64,000 nt of DNA from a virus. The position numbers and the translations under genes are program-made. Below the pieces are notes generated by a model. The model saw only the letters and a program-made list of their open reading frames with translations. It did no database searches and was not told where the DNA came from. The stretch is from the IMG/VR virus record IMGVR_UViG_3300042473_001368. One strand, given 5' to 3'. Below are positions 45,044-52,629 of this stretch, piece by piece (the stretch's first letter is position 1; each line of letters opens with the position of its first letter).

Positions 45044-45118
45044 GGACCGTTCGTCCAACGGATAGGACTAAGGCCTTCTAAGCCTCCAATCTAGGTTCGA
45101 ATCCTAGACGGTCTACCA
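45044..45118 (+). tRNA. tRNA-Arg(UCU)
   Basis: Cloverleaf, loop CTTCTAA, encoded CCA. Confidence 0.92.
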
Positions 45119-45120
45119 AT

Positions 45121-45192
45121 GCTGCTATCGTCTATCGGTTAGGACAAATGGTTTTCAACCATTAGAGCGGGGTTCAACTCCCCGTGGCAGCT
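45121..45192 (+). tRNA. tRNA-Glu(UUC), CCA not encoded
   Basis: Cloverleaf, loop TTTTCAA. Confidence 0.88.
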
Positions 45193-45234
45193 CTCTTTTT
45201 TCAGGTTAAGACATGAACTAGTATAAATACTAGT

Positions 45235-45837
45235 ATGTATTATACGGTTTATAAGATAACAAACTTAATTAACGGTAAAATATATGTTGGTGTTCATAGA
45301 ACATCCAACTTGAATGATTCGTATATGGGATCTGGTATGCTTATTAAGCAAGCGATTACCAAACACGGAGTTGAAAACTTTGAGCGTGAATACTTAGCGG
45401 TCTTCGATAACCCTGAAGATATGTATGACATGGAGTCGAAAATAGTAAATGAAGAATTTATTAACTCTCCATCTTCTTACAACCTTGCTACAGGCGGCTA
45501 CGGAGGCTGTCCTATATCTGGATCAAAAGGAGGCAAAAATTGTGCTGCAAAGTATAAGACGGACCCTGCTCTTGCAGAGGAACGATATTTTAGAAATAAG
45601 CTTCGTTTTGAAGAGTTAAAAAAGCAGGGAAAATGTTTAGGTGGTCCAAAATTTAAAGGGATGAAACACACCGAAGAGACAAAAGCAAAGATCGGGGCTA
45701 GTATTTCTAAAAAATGTCGTGGAGAAAACAACTCTCAGTTCGGGACAATGTGGATAACAGATAAGGTTACAAATAAAAAGATTTCAAAATTCGAACCTAT
45801 CCCAGAAGGCTGGGAAAAAGGTCGTATAATAAAGTAA
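45235..45837 (+). mobile_element. Free-standing GIY-YIG (Seg-like) homing endonuclease in the tRNA cluster
   Basis: YTVYKITNLINGKIYVGVH...YMGSG; NUMOD3-like KHTEETKAKIG; TATAAATA 45222-45229. Confidence 0.9.
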
Positions 45838-45854
45838 AAGTATGTTCTTAATAT

Positions 45855-45931
45855 CCTATTGTAGCTCAGTTGGTCAGAGCACTCGGTTGATAACCGATAG
45901 GTCGCAGGTTCAAATCCTGCCAGTAGGACCA
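45855..45931 (+). tRNA. tRNA-Ile(GAU)
   Basis: Cloverleaf, loop TTGATAA, CCA. Confidence 0.92.
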
Positions 45932-45943
45932 AATTTTTCAAAG

Positions 45944-46032
45944 GTACGTGAGGCTACTGTTGGTTGTGTGGCGGCAGACTGTAACCCTGCTCATCAGAAA
46001 CATCGTTGGTTCGATTCCAACCGCGTACACCA
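45944..46032 (+). tRNA. tRNA-Tyr(GUA)
   Basis: Loop CTGTAAC, long variable region, CCA. Confidence 0.88.
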
Positions 46033-46040
46033 TTTTTATT

Positions 46041-46115
46041 CCGAGGTTAGCATATGTAGTAATGTCCTGCCTTGTGACGGCAGCGAACATGGTGCAAGTC
46101 CATGACCGCGGACCA
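46041..46115 (+). tRNA. tRNA-His(GUG), atypical (no G-1, A73, T-loop TGCAAGT)
   Basis: CTGCC-TTGTGAC-GGCAG anticodon arm, CCA. Confidence 0.8.
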
Positions 46116-46117
46116 TT

Positions 46118-46214
46118 TTTGAGCAGCGAGAACTCGGACTAAGTAAAAGGAGGTTCAACTCCTCCATTCTCTGGCTAGTCACTATCAGGATGACAACCTG
46201 ACTGCTCAAATCCA
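46118..46214 (+). ncRNA. Rearranged tRNA-like RNA
   Basis: TTTGAGCAG/CTGCTCAAA closing stem + T + CCA; internal GGAGG-TTCAACT-CCTCC hairpin. Confidence 0.55.
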
Positions 46215-46228
46215 CTTTTTTTTAAAAA

Positions 46229-46303
46229 GCACCGTTAGTGTAATGGATAACACGCAAGATTACGACTCTTGTAATAAAGGTTCGAGTCCTTTATGGTGCA
46301 CCA
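46229..46303 (+). tRNA. tRNA-Arg(ACG)
   Basis: Cloverleaf, loop TTACGAC, CCA. Confidence 0.92.
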
Positions 46304-46312
46304 ATTTAATAT

Positions 46313-46387
46313 CGGTATGAAGCTTTAATGGTGAAGCGGTTGTCTGAAGAACAACATAAGACGATTCAAGCGCGTCCATGCCGGCCA
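46313..46387 (+). tRNA. tRNA-Phe(GAA), G73
   Basis: GTTGT-CTGAAGA-ACAAC, CCA; imperfect T-stem. Confidence 0.8.
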
Positions 46388-46396
46388 ATTTTCAAT

Positions 46397-46470
46397 CGCG
46401 GGGTAGAGTAGAGGTAACTCAACGGTCTCATAAGCCGTGTACGTGGGTTCGAATCCCACCCCTGCAACCA
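46397..46470 (+). tRNA. tRNA-fMet(CAU), initiator-like
   Basis: C1xA72 mismatch, loop CTCATAA, CCA. Confidence 0.85.
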
Positions 46471-46477
46471 ATTTTAT

Positions 46478-46552
46478 GGAGCATTAGTATATCGGTTAGT
46501 ACGAAGGATTGTCGATCCTTTGGGACGGGTTCGACTCCCGTATGCTCCGCCA
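46478..46552 (+). tRNA. tRNA-Asp(GUC)
   Basis: Cloverleaf, loop TTGTCGA, G73, CCA. Confidence 0.93.
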
Positions 46553-46564
46553 AATAACATTTAA

Positions 46565-46640
46565 CGGGCCTGAAGTGTAACCTGGTTGCACGCTTCGTTT
46601 GGGGCGAAGAAGAGGCGTTCGAATCGCACAGGCCCGACCA
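46565..46640 (+). tRNA. tRNA-Pro(UGG)
   Basis: C1-G72, loop TTTGGGG, weak T-stem, CCA. Confidence 0.85.
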
Positions 46641-46653
46641 ATTTTCAAAACAT

Positions 46654-46727
46654 GCGTTGATCGTCTAATGGTAAGACCTTGGATTCCAAACCCAAAGATG
46701 TGAGTTCGATTCTTACTCAACGTGCCA
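46654..46727 (+). tRNA. tRNA-Trp(CCA)
   Basis: Loop TTCCAAA, G73, CCA. Confidence 0.9.
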
Positions 46728-46729
46728 AA

Positions 46730-46805
46730 CGAGGCGAAGCTTTGATGGCTGAAGCAATCGGTTCTTACCCGATAGAAGCCGGCTCGAGTCCGGACGCCTT
46801 GACCA
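46730..46805 (+). tRNA. tRNA-Lys(CUU)
   Basis: Loop TTCTTAC, T-loop CTCGAGT, CCA. Confidence 0.85.
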
Positions 46806-46821
46806 ATTTTCAATAAACAAC

Positions 46822-46897
46822 GGGTCTATGATGAAACTGGTTATCATATCTGACTTTTAATCAGACTTTCCGAGTTCGAATCTCGGTGGACCTACCA
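46822..46897 (+). tRNA. tRNA-Lys(UUU)
   Basis: Cloverleaf, loop CTTTTAA, CCA. Confidence 0.93.
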
Positions 46898-46905
46898 ATT
46901 TCAAT

Positions 46906-46980
46906 AGGACTTTCGTATAACGGTTATTACTCTCGGCTTTGACCCGATAGATAGATGTTCAATTCATCTAGGTCCTACCA
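46906..46980 (+). tRNA. tRNA-Gln(UUG)
   Basis: Cloverleaf, loop CTTTGAC, CCA. Confidence 0.88.
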
Positions 46981-47102
46981 ATTTGCGTCATTGACAGAGC
47001 GAGCTATTCACTCGTGATCATCATTTGAGGCTGGGAAAAGTTGCTGAGACGACGGAGAAGGAATTCTTTAGTTGCAGAACTTAGTACCTAAACATTTTTA
47101 AT

Positions 47103-47193
47103 TCCCAGCGACCCGAGCAGGCGAACGGGCGTGGCTGTTAACCACTGCACCATGAATAATGGAGGCTAGGATCGTTACCTAGGCTGGGAGCCA
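47103..47193 (+). tRNA. tRNA-Asn(GUU) with long variable arm
   Basis: GTGG-CTGTTAA-CCAC; CCAT-GAATA-ATGG extra arm; T-loop ATCGTTA; G73, CCA. Confidence 0.8.
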
Positions 47194-47202
47194 TTTTACA
47201 AA

Positions 47203-47282
47203 GGAGTCGGACTGTTGTCAGCATCCAAATCTGTGAAAAGAGGAGGTTAGGTAATAAGTGGGACGAAACCCACACGGCGCCA
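47203..47282 (+). pseudogene. Degenerate tRNA-like element
   Basis: GGAGTCG/CGGCGCC stem (6 of 7 pairs) and GTGGG-ACGAAA-CCCAC T-arm-like hairpin; no clear anticodon arm. Confidence 0.4.
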
Positions 47283-47294
47283 TTTTTTCAATCT

Positions 47295-47376
47295 TTGCAT
47301 AGCGTGTATTGGTTCTGGTAGAGCGCGCATAACTCTGAGCATGTCAGAGAGAATCTACAAAGTATACGCTATGCAA
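47295..47376 (+). ncRNA. Long-stem structured RNA
   Basis: 16-bp closing stem (11 perfect, TTGCATAGCGT/ACGCTATGCAA); inner CTCTGA/TCAGAG hairpin. Confidence 0.55.
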
Positions 47377-47384
47377 TTCTAAAT

Positions 47385-47464
47385 GTCCGCCGGCTGAGAC
47401 TACGCTGATGCACAGTTTGAGTTTAATAGCTCTTAACGATAACGCCGATAATTAGTGGACGCCA
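47385..47464 (+). ncRNA. tRNA-sized CCA-ended RNA without T-loop
   Basis: GTCCGC/GTGGAC + G + CCA. Confidence 0.45.
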
Positions 47465-47484
47465 AATTTCATAGTTGAAGTTCA

Positions 47485-47502
47485 AAGGAACTAGATTATA
47501 AT
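47485..47502 (+). promoter_or_regulatory. GAAC-N5-TATAAT promoter
   Basis: AAGGAAC TAGAT TATAAT. Confidence 0.7.
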
Positions 47503-47512
47503 AATAATGTAA

Positions 47513-47636
47513 GCAATAGTAGCGAATGGTACAGCAGCGTGTCAGTAGTCAAGATCTCATGGCGGAAACAGGCGGAATACGACAGTACGAGAAACTGGAG
47601 CGTGTTTTTATGGAGGTTCAACTCCTCTCTATTGTT
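47513..47636 (+). ncRNA. Expanded tRNA-like RNA (large insertion in place of the anticodon arm)
   Basis: GCAATAG/CTATTGT acceptor, D-like TAGCGAATGGTACAGC, T-arm GGAGG-TTCAACT-CCTCT; own promoter 47485-47502. Confidence 0.6.
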
Positions 47637-47653
47637 TAATGCAATCGGCCTCG

Positions 47654-47736
47654 TGAACAGTGGTGATGCTCTCAGCTTGGATTAAGTTCCTGTCTTCGGA
47701 TTGCTGTGGTCGTATACCTGCGCCTAAAGCTGTTCA
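47654..47736 (+). ncRNA. Putative structured RNA
   Basis: TGAACAGT/GCTGTTCA closing stem with GGTG/CGCC and CAGC/GCTG inner stems. Confidence 0.4.
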
Positions 47737-47750
47737 AACAATTTTAAAAT

Positions 47751-47843
47751 GCTCCTGTAGGTTAATGGTAAACCACCGGCCTTATACACCGTTTAGCGCT
47801 AGATGTGCGCGAAATCCGGGTTCGAATCCCGGCGGGAGTACCA
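47751..47843 (+). tRNA. tRNA with UAU anticodon (Ile AUA reader) and long variable arm
   Basis: Loop CTTATAC; GCGC-TAGATGT-GCGC extra arm; canonical T-arm; A73, CCA. Confidence 0.8.
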
Positions 47844-47853
47844 AATTTTCAAT

Positions 47854-47929
47854 ACGCTTGTAGCTCAGTGGTTAGAGCAAGCCTCTCATAAAGGTTAGGT
47901 CATGGGTTCAAGCCCCATCGGGCGTACCA
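47854..47929 (+). tRNA. tRNA(CAU), elongator Met or lysidine Ile2
   Basis: Cloverleaf, loop CTCATAA, CCA. Confidence 0.9.
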
Positions 47930-47939
47930 ATTTCTTGAA

Positions 47940-48073
47940 ACATTAACACGCCACACTCTGATCAAGCGACGTGGTAATTATAGATAGACATACAATGCAG
48001 AAGGTTCGATTCCTTGACTCTGGTGAGGTCTGTGTAGTATGGAATGGATCGTGAAATCCTATAGTGTTAATGT
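47940..48073 (+). ncRNA. T-loop-containing structured RNA
   Basis: 10-bp ACATTAACAC/GTGTTAATGT closing stem; AAGG-TTCGATT-CCTT hairpin; GCCAC/GTGGT hairpin. Confidence 0.6.
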
Positions 48074-48089
48074 ATAAATAATTTTTTAT

Positions 48090-48163
48090 GGGGCTATGAT
48101 GTAACGGTAACATACAAGATTTGCAATTTTGTTCTGAGAGTTCGATTCTCTCTAGCTCCACCA
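48090..48163 (+). tRNA. tRNA-Ala(UGC)
   Basis: G3-U70, loop TTTGCAA, CCA. Confidence 0.93.
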
Positions 48164-48173
48164 AATTTCAATC

Positions 48174-48248
48174 CCCGCTGTAGCTTATACGGTAAAGCCT
48201 ACGCTTGTGACGCGTACTAACTCGGTTCGATCCCGAGCAGCTGGACCA
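48174..48248 (+). tRNA. Second tRNA-His(GUG), no G-1, A73
   Basis: TACGC-TTGTGAC-GCGTA, CCA. Confidence 0.82.
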
Positions 48249-48251
48249 AAC

Positions 48252-48325
48252 GCGCTAATAATTTAATGGTAAAATGTCTGTCTTCCAAGCAGAATTCCTG
48301 AGTTCGATTCTCAGTTAGCGTACCA
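48252..48325 (+). tRNA. tRNA-Gly(UCC), A73
   Basis: Loop CTTCCAA, CCA. Confidence 0.9.
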
Positions 48326-48334
48326 ATTTAACAA

Positions 48335-48600
48335 CTCTGTAATTCCGTAACATAGCATAGATGATAATGCGCCCGAAAGGGAGAAGGTGCTTAGACCACA
48401 TGAGGAAAAAAGAATTCAGAATTTCGGTGATCTGAATTAAAAGAAAACACCGTACACTTTTAATGCTGAAGTAGCCAAGCGTAATTGTGAGGGGTTCTAT
48501 TTTGCGTCCTATGCGTTTTCTCACCGTTTTAGCGACGATGCAAGTCAAGCCCAATGAGCGGGAAATAACGGATCAGGTTTGAGGTCATCCAGTAAAAACC
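48335..48600 (+). ncRNA. About 265-nt structured RNA with two pseudoknots
   Basis: CCC-GAAA-GGG; pseudoknot 48413-48455; GTGAG/CTCAC stem; pseudoknot 48570-48600. Confidence 0.55.
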
Positions 48601-48607
48601 TTATAAT

Positions 48608-48682
48608 GGCCGCAAAACATAGATGGCGATGTGCTGGTTTTGTACTCCAGATAGGAGGGTTCAAGTCCTTCTGCGGCCTCCA
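48608..48682 (+). tRNA. tRNA-Thr(UGU), U73
   Basis: GGCCGCA/TGCGGCC, loop TTTGTAC, CCA. Confidence 0.85.
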
Positions 48683-48690
48683 TATTTTTT

Positions 48691-48851
48691 TGACACAGAC
48701 GGTCTAGCTGTTGTAATTTACGAGACCATAAGAGAGGGTGATTGCGAGTGCGAATGCGTAGTAAGTCTTTTGACCGAAACAAAACAATATCTCGACAAGA
48801 CCGGATACTTGAACAAATTTCTGCCTCTCAAACTTCAGCGTGTGTCATCCA
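48691..48851 (+). ncRNA. 161-nt RNA with perfect acceptor-like stem and CCA, no cloverleaf
   Basis: TGACACA/TGTGTCA + T + CCA; inner GAGAGG/CCTCTC, GGTCT/AGACC, GTCTT/AAGAC stems. Confidence 0.6.
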
Positions 48852-48855
48852 ATTT

Positions 48856-49051
48856 GTATGAACAGCCGCTTTTCGTGTCTAGGGAAAAGCTCCACAATAT
48901 CAAGGTTATGATATGGCGCTGGTGAAATTCCAGAACGGATTCAAATTTACCTAAACGGGCTCATGAAACATAGGGACGGGCTCTTCCAATAGCGTGATGG
49001 CTATAGTCTTCGGACGAAGAGTATGTATATCTTGCAGAAGTGTTTCACTAC
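48856..49051 (+). ncRNA. About 195-nt multi-hairpin RNA
   Basis: GCTTTTC/GAAAAGC, ATATCA/TGATAT, CTGG/CCAG, CTCTTC/GAAGAG junction with GTC-TTCG-GAC. Confidence 0.55.
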
Positions 49052-49062
49052 AATTTTTTAAT

Positions 49063-49136
49063 GCCTTGTTAGTTCAATGGTAGAACGTCTGTTTTGTAAT
49101 CAGAAGGCGAGAGTTCGATTCTCTCACTCGGCTCCA
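49063..49136 (+). tRNA. Second tRNA-Thr(UGU), mismatched acceptor stem
   Basis: Loop TTTGTAA, U73, CCA. Confidence 0.82.
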
Positions 49137-49145
49137 ATTTTCTTA

Positions 49146-49244
49146 CAGTATATAGTGTAGTGATAGCACAACAAATGCGAACTGTGAAAACAGATGTAGC
49201 TAATCAAAATGGTTGCGAGGGTTTGATTCCCTCTGTACTGACAA
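49146..49244 (+). ncRNA. Expanded tRNA-like RNA with extra GAAA-capped arm
   Basis: CAGTATA/TGTACTG acceptor, D-arm, 46-nt middle, GAGGG-TTTGATT-CCCTC, ends ACAA. Confidence 0.6.
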
Positions 49245-49257
49245 ATTTTTAAACAAA

Positions 49258-49341
49258 GCGCAGGTGGTGGAATGGTATACACAGCAGTCTTAGAAGCTGC
49301 CGCCGTAAGGCTTGTGGGTTCGAGTCCCACCCTGCGCACCA
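49258..49341 (+). tRNA. tRNA-Leu(UAG)
   Basis: Class II cloverleaf, loop CTTAGAA, CCA. Confidence 0.93.
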
Positions 49342-49342
49342 T

Positions 49343-50770
49343 TTATCGACTGACCTCTTCCCAGTCCATTGATCCGTAAATGTCATCGCCATCTTTACTC
49401 GCTGCTACAGCTAGAGTTAATTCAAAGGATGTATTTGTAAAGCTATTTCTCTCAAGTTGGAACTTGAACAAAGCTTCTTTAAGAATATCAATAGTAGGAC
49501 TTCCTTGAGCATTGGAAGCAAGATATCCAGAAGCCAATACTCTACCGCCGGACAGACTAGTTCCATCTAGCTTGTATTCTACAGCGGAATTAGCGCTTCC
49601 AGCATCGGTCCATGTACCACCACTAGTTGTCCCTGAAGCAACTGCTCGCCAATTGTAAACTCCTGTACCTAATCCCATTATAGATAATGCAGTTAGAATA
49701 ACAATAGCATCTTGTCTTGCTGATTTTAAACGTATTGAAACTACAGGGTAAAAGGTTCCTTTTACTGTAAGATCTTTAGGAGCAGTTATTTCTGTGCCTA
49801 CTGCTTGTTGCAAGCCTCTTAGCTCATAGCCACCTTCAGATATAACTGTGCTACAAACTTGTTTTAATTTGCTCGGACCTGAAGTTGCAGCTTTATTTTC
49901 AATTTCATATCTGAGCGGTAGTGATCCTGTTGTAATGTATGTTGAATCAATTAGATTAGCGTGATGGAAGTAATGGCAAGGTACAAACTGACCATTGATA
50001 ACAAATCCTGTTCTCACAGTGCCTAATCCGAGCCATTCGATATCCGCGAATAAAATTTGAGCCTTTGTAATATCAAGGGTAAGTCCAGATGGTCCTGATC
50101 CATCTAAGCGATCTACATTCCATTGCGACTGTGGGATACGGTTAGATGAAAGCGAGCCAGAGGTAATGCTGCGTTCAACCATGTAAAGAGTGCTATCGTC
50201 TAACTCTAAGTAGATACCATTATCAACGCCAAAATAACCAACACGTTGTCTAAGATTTGTCTTAGCTTGGTTGAAGGTGAATGTATTTAACAGCTGTAAG
50301 CTCTTACCAGGTTGATATGCAAATACTTTAGTAGTTTCGCGATAAACTTTAGAACCGCTGAGAGCATCAACTTTTAGTTCGACGAGACCTTGAGTTTGAA
50401 TAAATTGCGCAGAAGCAGATGTTGATGTAGATCCTCCTGTTAATGTTGCCCAAAGGTTGTTATCTGCATATCTATGAGACGAGTCAAAAAGAGTCAATGG
50501 ACTTGATGTTCGTGTTCTTCCGAATGCGTCGCTTCCCATGTTTAAGTTGCCTGTATAGTTGCTTGTTGTATCATCAACACTCTTAACTAATACAGCATAC
50601 TTAGGATAGACCTCAACAGAACTTGTTGGAGCAACTCCGGTAGCGTTAGGTGAGTTGTATCGTGTAACAGATACAGCAGGGTATGTTGTATGATTTTTAA
50701 GTTCAACAAACTTACCGTATTCTGCGGTTTGATAATTTGCTACAACAACGGTATTATATTCACTCATCAA
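49343..50770 (-). CDS. Late virion-type protein, antisense within the tRNA cluster
   Basis: 475 aa beta-rich; DAFGRTRTSSPLTLFDS motif of phage structural proteins; late promoter 50774-50780. Confidence 0.7.
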   Translation of the reverse strand: MMSEYNTVVVANYQTAEYGKFVELKNHTTYPAVSVTRYNSPNATGVAPTSSVEVYPKYAVLVKSVDDTTSNYTGNLNMGSDAFGRTRTSSPLTLFDSSHRYADNNLWATLTGGSTSTSASAQFIQTQGLVELKVDALSGSKVYRETTKVFAYQPGKSLQLLNTFTFNQAKTNLRQRVGYFGVDNGIYLELDDSTLYMVERSITSGSLSSNRIPQSQWNVDRLDGSGPSGLTLDITKAQILFADIEWLGLGTVRTGFVINGQFVPCHYFHHANLIDSTYITTGSLPLRYEIENKAATSGPSKLKQVCSTVISEGGYELRGLQQAVGTEITAPKDLTVKGTFYPVVSIRLKSARQDAIVILTALSIMGLGTGVYNWRAVASGTTSGGTWTDAGSANSAVEYKLDGTSLSGGRVLASGYLASNAQGSPTIDILKEALFKFQLERNSFTNTSFELTLAVAASKDGDDIYGSMDWEEVSR

Positions 50771-50824
50771 AAGTATTTATCATTTTGAGTGGATTATTAT
50801 TAATTTGTTGTTATAATAAGTTGT

Positions 50825-50953
50825 ATGTCGGATAGAACAACAACCAAAACAAGAAAAGCTACAGTAAAACGCGGCAATGTTACTGTTCGTAAGACTGTAA
50901 CAGTAACAAAGACTGTAAAGGCTCCAAAAGAGAAACGGAGACGTAAGAAATAA
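50825..50953 (+). CDS. 42-aa very basic K/R/T/V-rich protein (below ORF-track cutoff)
   Basis: MSDRTTTKTRKATVKRGNVTVRKTVTVTKTVKAPKEKRRRKK. Confidence 0.55.
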   Translation: MSDRTTTKTRKATVKRGNVTVRKTVTVTKTVKAPKEKRRRKK

Positions 50954-50962
50954 TTTTTATAT

Positions 50963-51054
50963 GGGTGTGTGGTCGAGTCTGGTTTATGGCGCCGCACTTG
51001 AAATGCGGAGGTGGTGAAAGCTGCCCGTGGGTTCAAATCCTACCGCACCCGCCA
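50963..51054 (+). tRNA. tRNA-Ser(UGA)
   Basis: Class II, loop CTTGAAA, G73, CCA. Confidence 0.93.
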
Positions 51055-51065
51055 ATTTAATAAAT

Positions 51066-51140
51066 TGCATGATGAGTCGCGCTCATCTGATCTGGAATAC
51101 GCAGGAGGACGTCCAGTAAGAATAATATATAAACCCTGCA
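51066..51140 (+). ncRNA. Hairpin plus H-type pseudoknot RNA
   Basis: GATGAG/CTCATC; CTGGA/TCCAG with loop GCAGG pairing to downstream CCTGC. Confidence 0.5.
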
Positions 51141-51151
51141 CAATTTTTAAC

Positions 51152-51233
51152 GGCTCCGTGGTGGAACGTATACACAGCAAACTTAAAATTTGCCGCCTTA
51201 GGGATTGCGATGTCGAAGTCGCCGGAGCCACCA
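51152..51233 (+). tRNA. tRNA-Leu(UAA), aberrant T-loop
   Basis: GCAAA-CTTAAAA-TTTGC, variable arm, CCA. Confidence 0.85.
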
Positions 51234-51243
51234 TTTTAACATT

Positions 51244-51726
51244 ATGCGTAAATTAACATTTAGCGATTGCGAATCGCATGTAGACAAGATTTGTAAGTCG
51301 ATTGTAAAATCGCACTGGCAGCCCGACTATATTGTAGGCCTCAGTAGAGGTGGATTAGTTCCAGGAGTAATGATTAGTCATTGGCTCAATGTACCATTTA
51401 AGCCTCTTGAGGTCTCTCTCAGAGATGGTGGGTATCGTAAGAGTTCAAAGTTTCTTTCAAAAGAAGCGCAATACGGTAGAAACATTCTCATTGTCGATGA
51501 TATTAATGATTCAGGTAAAACATTTAACTGGATTATGAGTGACTGGGAGACTACAATCAGCCAAGGAGGGCATTCGCTCGAAGATGCATGGAACAACAAT
51601 GTAAGATTTGCTGTTCTCGTTAACAAGATCGAGAGTGGCTGCGATGTTAGTATTGATTACTTTGGCGCAGATAACTCATGCGACGTCTCTCCGAAAGAAT
51701 GGTATTCCTTTCCTTGGGAACTTTAA
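51244..51726 (+). CDS. Type I phosphoribosyltransferase
   Basis: IVGLSRGGLVPG, ILIVDDINDSGKT; start moved to MRKLTF because the track start lies inside a tRNA. Confidence 0.85.
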   Translation: MRKLTFSDCESHVDKICKSIVKSHWQPDYIVGLSRGGLVPGVMISHWLNVPFKPLEVSLRDGGYRKSSKFLSKEAQYGRNILIVDDINDSGKTFNWIMSDWETTISQGGHSLEDAWNNNVRFAVLVNKIESGCDVSIDYFGADNSCDVSPKEWYSFPWEL

Positions 51727-51741
51727 TATAATATCTATAAC

Positions 51742-51816
51742 GCGCGATTAGCTCAGCGGTAGAGCAGATCCTTTACACGGATAAGGTCGGCGGTTCAATC
51801 CCGTCATCGCGTACCA
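51742..51816 (+). tRNA. tRNA-Val(UAC)
   Basis: Cloverleaf, loop TTTACAC, CCA. Confidence 0.93.
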
Positions 51817-51835
51817 CTTTTTAATAAATAACATT

Positions 51836-52198
51836 ATGCAATTTACAGCTTTAGTTGAGAAGGTCATAGACGGTGTGACGGAAATGTTTACTCTCTTTAT
51901 AACCAAGAGAGCCGCAGGCGCAAAAAAGATCGAGGATGCTGCACGCAAGAAAGGCATGTACGCAATTCTTACAGCGTATCATTTTGCAGGTAAGGTCAAA
52001 CCTTATGCTGACGCATTAAAATGGGCTAAGAAAGAAGCTAAAGAGGATCACTTCAAAGAGCAGTATAAGGAATTTTACTCCAAGCTGAAGAACATCGATT
52101 CTCTCTCTCAAAAAGAATTTCAAATGATTACAGGATCTCTTGAGGCGTACGGCGAAGTTTATATTCAGTCAAAGACGCCAAAAGATTATTCAAAATAA
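51836..52198 (+). CDS. Hypothetical protein between tRNAs
   Basis: 120-aa ORF filling the spacer. Confidence 0.6.
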   Translation: MQFTALVEKVIDGVTEMFTLFITKRAAGAKKIEDAARKKGMYAILTAYHFAGKVKPYADALKWAKKEAKEDHFKEQYKEFYSKLKNIDSLSQKEFQMITGSLEAYGEVYIQSKTPKDYSK

Positions 52199-52205
52199 TA
52201 ACAAC

Positions 52206-52279
52206 GAGGCGGTGGGAGAATGGCCATCCAGCGGACTGCAACTCCGTGTATATCAGTTCGAGTCTGATCCGCCTCTCCA
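52206..52279 (+). tRNA. tRNA-Cys(GCA)
   Basis: Loop CTGCAAC, U73, CCA. Confidence 0.93.
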
Positions 52280-52292
52280 ATTTATAACGAAC

Positions 52293-52366
52293 ACGGGTAT
52301 AATATAATGGTAGTATGCAACGTTGCCAACGTTGATGTTCCGGATCAAAACCGGGTACCCGTACCA
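52293..52366 (+). tRNA. tRNA-Gly(GCC), A73, T-loop ATCAAAA
   Basis: ACGGGTA/TACCCGT; CAACG-TTGCCAA-CGTTG; CCA. Confidence 0.82.
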
Positions 52367-52372
52367 CTTTTT

Positions 52373-52449
52373 GCCTCGATATCCCAATTGGTAGAGGAGC
52401 ATGTTTAAGGGACATGATGTTGAGGGTTCGACTCCCTCTCGAGGCACCA
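52373..52449 (+). tRNA. tRNA with AAG anticodon (Leu CUU reader) but short variable loop
   Basis: CATGT-TTAAGGG-ACATG; 5-nt variable loop; perfect acceptor and T arms; CCA. Confidence 0.8.
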
Positions 52450-52453
52450 ATAT

Positions 52454-52528
52454 ACCACTGTAGTTCAGAGGCAGAACGCGTCGCTCATAACGACGAGGTC
52501 GGGATTTCGAAATTCCCTGGTGGTACCA
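52454..52528 (+). tRNA. tRNA(CAU), elongator Met or Ile2
   Basis: CGTCG-CTCATAA-CGACG, CCA. Confidence 0.88.
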
Positions 52529-52536
52529 AATTTTAA

Positions 52537-52629
52537 GGAACGTTGACAGAGTCCGGTATTGTGCTGTCCTGCTAAGACATGGCCAACCCTATAAAGGTTG
52601 CATTGGTTCAAATCCAATACGTTCCTCCA
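52537..52629 (+). tRNA. tRNA-Ser(GCU), U73
   Basis: Class II, loop CTGCTAA, CCA. Confidence 0.88.

Follow-up and report, generated by a model that had tools for sequence, protein, structure and literature searches.

Why would a phage tRNA array carry, in a place where exactly one tRNA gene fits, an RNA gene whose T-loop is predicted to sit at the anticodon end? This question is raised by a 97-nt element at 46118–46214 (+) of the window, by which we mean the whole 64-kb stretch of DNA analyzed here (64,000 nt). The window comes from an uncultured freshwater T4-like phage and is present in public lake, river, aquatic, and wastewater metagenome runs. Its virion protein gene (49343–50770, −) matched phrog_1645 with an E value of 1.7e-134, and the product is about 65% identical to T4-like cyanophage and Puniceispirillum phage HMO-2011 proteins. 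The tRNA array spans 45044–52629, and nearly every gene in it has an encoded CCA followed by a T-rich spacer of 2–16 nt. The element fills exactly one slot of this array. It starts 2 nt past the CCA of a complete tRNA-His gene, a complete tRNA-Arg gene follows it, and its own CCA is succeeded by C and then eight Ts; the NCCA and T run resemble those of the neighbors. ARAGORN called 28 tRNAs in the array, and the element was not among them, just as the original prediction had expected of tRNA finders. Rfam returned 27 tRNA matches in the window, two of which were tRNA-like genes absent from the ARAGORN calls. At the element itself, nothing reached Rfam gathering scores and no tRNA match appeared at E ≤ 10 over 46090–46240; the only match at that threshold was a chance one, with a mammalian lncRNA family (7.6 bits, E 0.54). 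Directly upstream, tRNA-Tyr(GUA) and tRNA-His(GUG) (45944–46115, +) accompany the element, the three forming one near-identical cassette. The array also contains a gene for a Seg-like homing endonuclease (GIY-YIG plus NUMOD3) at 45235–45837 (+), 280 nt upstream of the element, and the block containing it (45118–45869) recurs at 99% identity in L186.

Several other genes of the array depart from the standard tRNA form. Both ARAGORN and Rfam missed a tRNA-Asn(GUU)-like gene at 47113–47195 (+). Its acceptor stem is 7 bp long and leads into G73-CCA, its anticodon loop reads CUGUUAA, its extra arm is long (CCAU/AUGG), and its T-loop, AUCGUUA, is noncanonical. Asn is otherwise missing from the array, and the block with this gene (47094–47203) is 96% identical in the related arrays L180, L182, and L184. 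At 47513–47637 (+) lies a tRNA frame of 124 nt that is closed by a 9-bp stem, keeps a normal T-arm, lacks CCA, and has a large insert where the anticodon arm would be. A covariance model built from six homologues of phage T5 RNA2 (R2) gave it a weak full-length match (12.4 bits, E 1.5). The 770-nt gap in the array at 46981–47750 (+) is without a convincing gene and full of further structured RNAs, several of which end in CCA plus TTT (e.g., 47196–47282 and 47386–47466), and it includes a 16-bp hairpin at 47295–47376 (z = −4.0). A 99-nt, five-arm tRNA-like gene at 49146–49244 (+) scored 38 bits with the Rfam tRNA model and was missed by ARAGORN; it carries an additional hairpin (CUGU-GAAA-ACAG), an arm of 7 bp whose loop is AUCAAAA, and a normal T-arm, and it ends in ACAA in place of CCA. 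Both tRNA-His genes (46041–46115 and 48174–48248, +) have A73, no encoded G−1 (T or C precedes), and one acceptor-stem mismatch each. Since tRNA-His with A73 and without an encoded G−1 is typical of a group of alphaproteobacteria, this combination may hint at an alphaproteobacterial host. In related phage contigs, a full tmRNA gene stands beside the tRNA arrays (L012 11436–11829 and L026 12175–12568, −), with a tag peptide ending in ...GGELALAA.

The ViennaRNA minimum-free-energy and centroid folds of the element are both a four-arm cloverleaf at −30.7 kcal/mol, in the form in which the original prediction had drawn it. Shuffled sequences fold at −20.3 ± 3.4 kcal/mol, giving the element z = −3.0, and 1 shuffle in 200 was as stable. 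The 9-bp closing stem, in which TTTGAGCAG (46118–46126) pairs with CTGCTCAAA (46202–46210), is of acceptor type. Its 5′ strand, UUUGAGCAG, has pair probabilities of 0.64–1.0, and its 3′ strand, CUGCUCAAA, is followed by discriminator U46211 and the encoded CCA at 46212–46214 (46202–46214 in all), so the described order of closing stem, T, and CCA holds. A mini arm, CGA-GAAC-UCG, occupies the D-arm position (46127–46136) without G18G19 and with probabilities of 0.82–0.94. This arm had been proposed as CGAG/CTCG; the arm is there, but the 4-bp form is impossible because it would leave a 2-nt loop, and the arm is 3 bp closed by GAAC. The long arm at the anticodon-arm position (46137–46180) is predicted to start with GACTA (46137–46141) paired to TAGTC (46176–46180), the GACUA/UAGUC helix. 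It continues through AG/CU with a GGC bulge and a 5 × 5 internal loop with two A-U pairs, and its tip is the T-arm hairpin GGAGG-UUCAACU-CCUCC (46149–46165; G53 U54 U55 C56 A57 A58 .. C61). Sequence and fold thus both agree with the GACT/AGTC arm ending in a canonical T hairpin that had been described. A 4-nt linker, ACUA (46181–46184), stands at the variable-loop position. The last hairpin, UCAGG-AUGACAA-CCUGA (46185–46201; 5-bp stem, 7-nt loop, probabilities 0.83–1.0), is found at the T-arm place where it was expected and directly abuts the 3′ strand of the closing stem. Its AUGACAA loop resembles an anticodon loop, in that position 2 is U, GAC follows, and position 6 is A, and it has no T-loop features.

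All seven helices of the element are perfectly Watson–Crick, and the closing stem terminates exactly at N73-CCA. Helix pair probabilities are 0.8–1.0, except for the terminal U-A of the closing stem (0.64) and the last GACUA/UAGUC pair (0.78). An alternative fold, in which GAGAA (46128–46132) and UUCUC (46167–46171) form a nested minihelix around the T-arm and GACUA/UAGUC becomes a pseudoknot, was not preferred: when forced, it reaches −27.1 vs −30.7 kcal/mol, with a pair probability of 0.01. Coding readings were dismissed as well. The overlapping ORFs at 45948–46142 (+) and 46036–46215 (−) both cross tRNA genes, and AAGGAGGU was rejected as a Shine–Dalgarno site, the only ATG (46190) being 35 nt off and opening a 3-codon frame.

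The junction linkers of the element are 0, 0, 4, and 0 nt, against 2, 1, 4–5, and 0 nt in tRNA. Because these linkers are close to those of tRNA, the arms correspond by position to the D, anticodon, and T arms, and the modeled topology is that of a tRNA frame. Together with the tRNA slot and the acceptor-type stem with N73 and CCA, this upholds the proposal that the element is tRNA-derived. It is not a canonical tRNA. The end-closed stem with discriminator and CCA is present, though with 9 bp rather than 7. The T-position loop is AUGACAA on a stack of 9 + 5 = 14 bp, not 12, the anticodon-position arm has about 17 layers and ends in a T-loop, and the D-position arm is 3 bp plus GAAC. A tmRNA was rejected, as neither ARAGORN nor Rfam made a tmRNA call at the element, pair 3–70 is U-A and not G3-U70, and the T-arm is misplaced. 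A circularly permuted tRNA gene was also set aside, in line with the original prediction: the T hairpin and the last hairpin are only 19 nt apart, and no second half lies on either side. The YrlA Y RNA family (RF02553) gave no Rfam match at the element, and its arm order differs. Allo-tRNAs (8/4 or 9/3 cloverleaf; PMC5389517) have a longer acceptor and a shorter T-stem, keeping a 12-bp branch and a normal anticodon arm, whereas the element has a branch of 9 + 5 = 14 bp and lacks a normal anticodon arm.

Both strands of the 64-kb window were scanned for a strict T-arm signature (a 5-bp stem closed by G53-C61, with the loop TTCRA..). The signature occurred 25 times, every time on the + strand within the array, and zero times in the remaining 54.7 kb or on the opposite strand of the window. 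ARAGORN-called tRNA genes hold 23 of the 25 occurrences, and the other two are the element and the gene at 47513–47637. The T-arm of the element is identical at 16 of 16 nt to the T-arm of that gene (47612–47627). Confinement of the signature to the array and this 16-nt identity argue that the long-arm tip is a T-arm by descent and not by accident. The T hairpin first noticed here is therefore a genuine T-arm.

Six copies of the element were found in public data, five of them identical and one diverged (L179). The identical copies are those of the window, of three IMG/VR contigs (L001, L002, and L003), and of an ENA marine-metagenome contig (L177). Their order is always Tyr-His-element, in at least three different array contexts, the flanking genes being Ile and Arg in the window, Glu and Thr in L001–L003, and Cys and Thr in L177. 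The Tyr-His-element block shows 2–3 differences in about 290 positions among the five copies, and the L001–L003 phages have no DNA-level similarity to the window beyond the array. In L181, the coding backbone is 78% identical to that of the window and tRNA-Tyr is 98.9% identical. Near-identical cassettes in unlike contexts and backbones show the arrays to be mosaics whose cassettes are exchanged at CCA/T-rich junctions. A wastewater DNA run (X10) holds a further relative with 8 differences over 66 nt (46140–46205), its depth being about four times that of the window-type sequence in the same run.

We favor the reading that the element is an accessory, non-decoding tRNA mimic of the T5-RNA2/T4-species-1 kind, a reading that we regard as about evenly poised between right and wrong. 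It is favored by the slot anatomy, the stable fold, the array-specific T-arm, and the fact that tRNA and tmRNA tools do not recognize the element. It is further favored by the same design in the conserved T5 RNA2 and in another RNA of this array (47940–48073), by identical copies in at least three contexts, by the abundant X10 relative, and by a Seg-like gene placed as segB is in T4. Opposed to it are the missing covariation, the damage in L179, sibling arrays that are free of the element, and the lack of further homologues.

These opposing points bear on the chief rival, which we consider unlikely on balance and still a serious contender. The element may be a young recombination by-product of a fluid tRNA array, with no selected function, hitch-hiking with a useful Tyr-His cassette. 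The anticodon loop of a tRNA frame would have captured a T-arm fragment, its own T-loop and D-arm would have decayed, and the element would still be transcribed and perhaps still processed. The tiny distribution of six copies, five identical, fits this origin, and so does the sole diverged copy. In L179 (JACCDG011220573.1), the element follows a tRNA-Tyr identical to the window's at 89 of 89 positions, without His. The basal helix of the long arm, GACUA/UAGUC, is broken by the loss of 2 nt from its 5′ strand, an A-to-G change adjoins the T hairpin, and UUUAA replaces the UCCAC of the others, leaving no CCA where all other genes read there keep theirs. In the minimum-free-energy fold of this copy, the mini arm is gone and the closing stem persists, as do the T hairpin and last hairpin; the deletion leaves the nested-minihelix fold intact. 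Sibling arrays L180, L182, and L184 pass from Tyr directly to Arg with neither His nor the element, and their Tyr, Arg, Phe-like, and Met genes match those of the window, so they share the element's neighbors without sharing the element. Mosaic arrays that swap cassettes at CCA/T-rich junctions with a Seg-like endonuclease on site, and a T-arm that recurs unchanged in another odd gene 1.5 kb off, also suit an accidental origin.

A recombination by-product is harder to reconcile with seven perfect Watson–Crick helices, a 9-bp stem that stops exactly at N73-CCA, and a cloverleaf that is the clear ensemble winner, an outcome that random rearrangement would rarely yield. The design is also conserved in T5 RNA2 and in the 47940–48073 RNA, and the relative with 8 differences over 66 nt outnumbers the window-type phage in one sample. 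The perfect helices, the stem ending at N73-CCA, and the abundance of that relative therefore oppose a pure relic. The element-free arrays of L180, L182, and L184 and the deletion, CCA loss, and lost mini arm of L179 weaken the case for selection, and the evidence that the element is under selection is thin. The outcome that the original prediction had named as fatal, a recently scrambled and unconserved tRNA pseudogene, is borne out in part only, by the helix-breaking deletion and lost CCA of L179 and by related arrays without the element.

The proposed search for homologues was productive in yielding five other copies and uninformative as to structure: with five of the six copies identical, no covariation or compensatory change was found among them. 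Because there is no compensatory change anywhere, the fold of the element is a thermodynamic prediction. The AUGACAA loop is unchanged in all six copies, which is uninformative given their near-identity. The patterns and models used brought up no further homologues in GenBank phages, GTDB genomes, IMG/VR, or JGI metagenome contigs. The IMG/VR patterns were exact or degenerate over the 3′ hairpin, both loops, and the T-arm, with anchors on the unusual tRNA-His and tRNA-Tyr, and a protein-anchored IMG/VR collection was used to gather related arrays. A single-sequence covariance model of the element (R1) covered 186 loci, and a structure-descriptor script covered 143. All 31 matches from the pattern scans of GTDB genomes were unrelated coding or repeat sequence, and blastn of the element against all GenBank phages gave nothing at E ≤ 1.

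Returning to the favored reading, a non-decoding tRNA mimic, the element would be co-transcribed with the neighboring tRNAs, since a search for its own promoter or terminator gave nothing above what shuffled sequences yield. Its release would be tRNA-style, with an endonuclease cut just 3′ of CCA, RNase P acting at the 5′ end (predicted site U46117/U46118), and exonucleases trimming to CCA. The E. coli tRNA processing scheme serves as the model for these steps (PMC2190699). The 14-bp stack and the U1-A72 start poorly fit the 12-bp ruler of RNase P, which counts against this reading. The product would be a 97-nt cloverleaf whose acceptor stem, stacked on the 5-bp hairpin, makes a 14-bp helix vs the 12 bp of tRNA, and whose "anticodon" arm is a rod of about 17 layers with a T-arm cap. 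Without a D/T elbow, with a 14-bp stack, and with no anticodon arm in usable geometry, such a product should be unable to decode. Most probably it would act as the other tRNA-framed stable RNAs of such clusters do (T5 RNA1/RNA2, T4 species 1), presenting tRNA-handling factors of the host or phage with a T-arm and a minihelix that ends in CCA. Candidate partners include TrmA and TruB (T-arm-specific modification enzymes and chaperones), RNase P, the CCA-adding enzyme, and a tRNA-directed defense nuclease. An isolated T-arm hairpin is the minimal kind of substrate accepted by TrmA and TruB. The element would be dispensable, and mobile in a Tyr-(His)-element cassette via recombination at CCA/T-rich spacers.

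Three metatranscriptome runs from three studies gave contigs of 164–173 nt with 100% identity, covering 46049, 46053, and 46059 to 46214, 46216, and 46218. These contigs correspond to the 3′ two-thirds of tRNA-His plus the whole element. Their depth is only 2.7–4.7, two of them run 2–4 nt into DNA spacer, and all three end where the window-type and L003-type contexts diverge. For these reasons they prove neither transcription nor RNA ends, and assembly-graph branching or DNA carry-over accounts for them. Their low depth and run into DNA spacer count against the mimic reading. One metatranscriptome contig (RNA run X18) joins A46214 to TTTATTCCGAG, which is the spacer plus the 5′ start of tRNA-His. 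This head-to-tail CCA/tRNA-His junction was absent from all DNA loci compared, and it could reflect tandem amplification of a His-element unit or an RNA circle.

The original prediction had suggested that the element acts as bait for tRNA-targeting enzymes, and we find this improbable. The swapped anticodon-like loop (AUGACAA) and the T-loop would titrate a tRNA-attacking enzyme or be cut harmlessly. AUGACAA does have an anticodon-loop-like U at position 2 and a purine at position 6, and a Seg-like gene adjoins. Phage tRNA genes are documented against tRNA-cleaving defenses, and a Seg endonuclease can amplify them, SegB driving tandem amplification of tRNA genes in T6 (PMC13096335). However, no candidate nuclease, target specificity, or comparative signal was found for the element, a constant loop in six near-identical copies says nothing, and an anticodon nuclease that reads shape would face a 14-bp stack and not an anticodon/D stack.

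A broader proposal, which we judge decidedly improbable, joins the element, T5 RNA2, and the 47940–48073 RNA into an unrecognized class of "inverted-handle" phage tRNA mimics. The T-loop knob at the anticodon place would engage an elbow-reading host factor or defense sensor from the wrong end. AUGACAA (GAC plus purine) could also pair with the anticodon loop of tRNA-Asp(GUC), making the element a tRNA-binding or tRNA-sequestering RNA and not a passive decoy, and the X18 junction would then be a Seg-driven tandem amplification of His-element or an RNA circle. An aberrant decoding tRNA, reading with CAA in UUCAACU (Leu) or GAC in AUGACAA (Val), is highly implausible. In its favor, each loop is 7 nt long with U as its second base, and unorthodox yet plausible tRNAs occur elsewhere in the array (e.g., Asn-GUU with its long extra arm, 47113–47195). 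Against it, the long arm is about three times as long as an anticodon arm should be, the UUCAACU loop would have C at position 37, the hairpin with AUGACAA is stacked on the acceptor stem, there is no D/T elbow, and tRNA models score nothing at the element. The mimic, by-product, bait, and decoding readings together take up nearly all of our confidence, and a small share is reserved for readings beyond these four.

Stable RNAs of phage tRNA clusters (T4 species 1 and 2; T5 RNA1, RNA2, and RNA3) have been known since the 1970s, and to our knowledge no function has ever been assigned to them. The element adds a compact, 97-nt, CCA-ended example with only two tRNA "handles", the CCA minihelix and a T-arm at the anticodon end. 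If it is selected, it narrows the requirements of such RNAs and provides a small, directly testable construct. Shuffling of such RNAs with tRNAs in cassettes among freshwater phages bears on how counter-measures to tRNA-directed defenses are assembled. Should it be no more than a relic, it would cleanly illustrate how tRNA arrays give rise to new structured RNAs.

Comparison with known systems places the element among several non-decoding RNAs of tRNA type. The YrlA-type bacterial and phage Y RNAs resemble it as non-decoding tRNA mimics with an internal T-arm. YrlA is reportedly (as attributed to Chen et al., 2014) a permuted tRNA with the order T-arm, loop-closed acceptor, and D-arm, and with a Ro-binding stem and no CCA end. 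The element differs from it in arm order and in having a free NCCA end. T4 species 1 and 2 (rnaC and rnaD) are, like the element, small RNAs of a tRNA cluster near a GIY-YIG gene (segB), and rnaC shares an acceptor-like closing stem. Unlike the element, rnaC (139 nt) has a canonical T-arm, CCGGG-UUCGAAU-CCCGG, at the normal place by the 3′ strand, and blastn at E ≤ 1 detects no sequence similarity between the element and these T4 RNAs.

The 47940–48073 RNA (+) lies in the same array and has the same succession of a closing stem (9–10 bp), a small arm, a long arm, and a small arm, and its long second arm bears the T-loop hairpin AAGG-UUCGAUU-CCUU. Unlike the element, it is 134 nt long, has no discriminator-CCA end, and is present and well conserved in L180, L182, and L184; no sequence similarity between the two was detected. 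In a four-sequence alignment read by eye, it has six differing positions against the three sibling phages, and two in-stem changes preserve pairing (G·U to A-U and C-G to U·G). The 345-nt block containing this RNA and its flanking tRNAs is 88–89% identical.

The closest known analogue of the element is T5 RNA2. The T5 annotation lists eight stable RNAs in the tRNA region, three of them termed tRNA-like, and RNA2 of T5/BF23 (gene rna2, NC_005859 32959–33083) is a misc_RNA annotated as "tRNA-like stable RNA with unknown functions". Like the element, it belongs to a phage tRNA cluster, has a tRNA-type frame, is non-decoding, and carries a T-loop-type hairpin on a lengthened anticodon-position arm, here CUCG-UUCGAUU-CGAG. 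Unlike the element, it has a normal D-arm, a normal T-arm by the acceptor stem, and the motifs GAAUGG and CGUAARUCCGCA. The R2 model gave no match to the whole element, and its sole partial alignment (46072–46165, 12.4 bits, E 1.5) begins inside tRNA-His and is spurious. Since the element lacks the RNA2 D-arm, T-arm, and motifs and the covariance model fails on it, we place it outside the RNA2 family. A related freshwater phage carries a 126-nt T5-RNA2-like gene (L181 13463–13588, +; 29 bits), in which the CGUAAAUCCGCA motif is conserved and a GGUUCGA hairpin lies internally, and L180 8135–8249 and L182 2790–2904 score 26 bits with the same model. Among RNA2 homologues from T5-like phages and Acinetobacter phage Acj9, G-UUCRAUU-C is kept and the changes in the 4-bp tip stem are compensatory (CUCG/CGAG, ACGG/CCGU, UUGG/CCAA, and CUUG/CAAG). 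Given this conserved, covarying T-loop hairpin on an anticodon-position arm, the element is less unprecedented than the original prediction held, and a T-loop at the anticodon end is an existing and conserved design.
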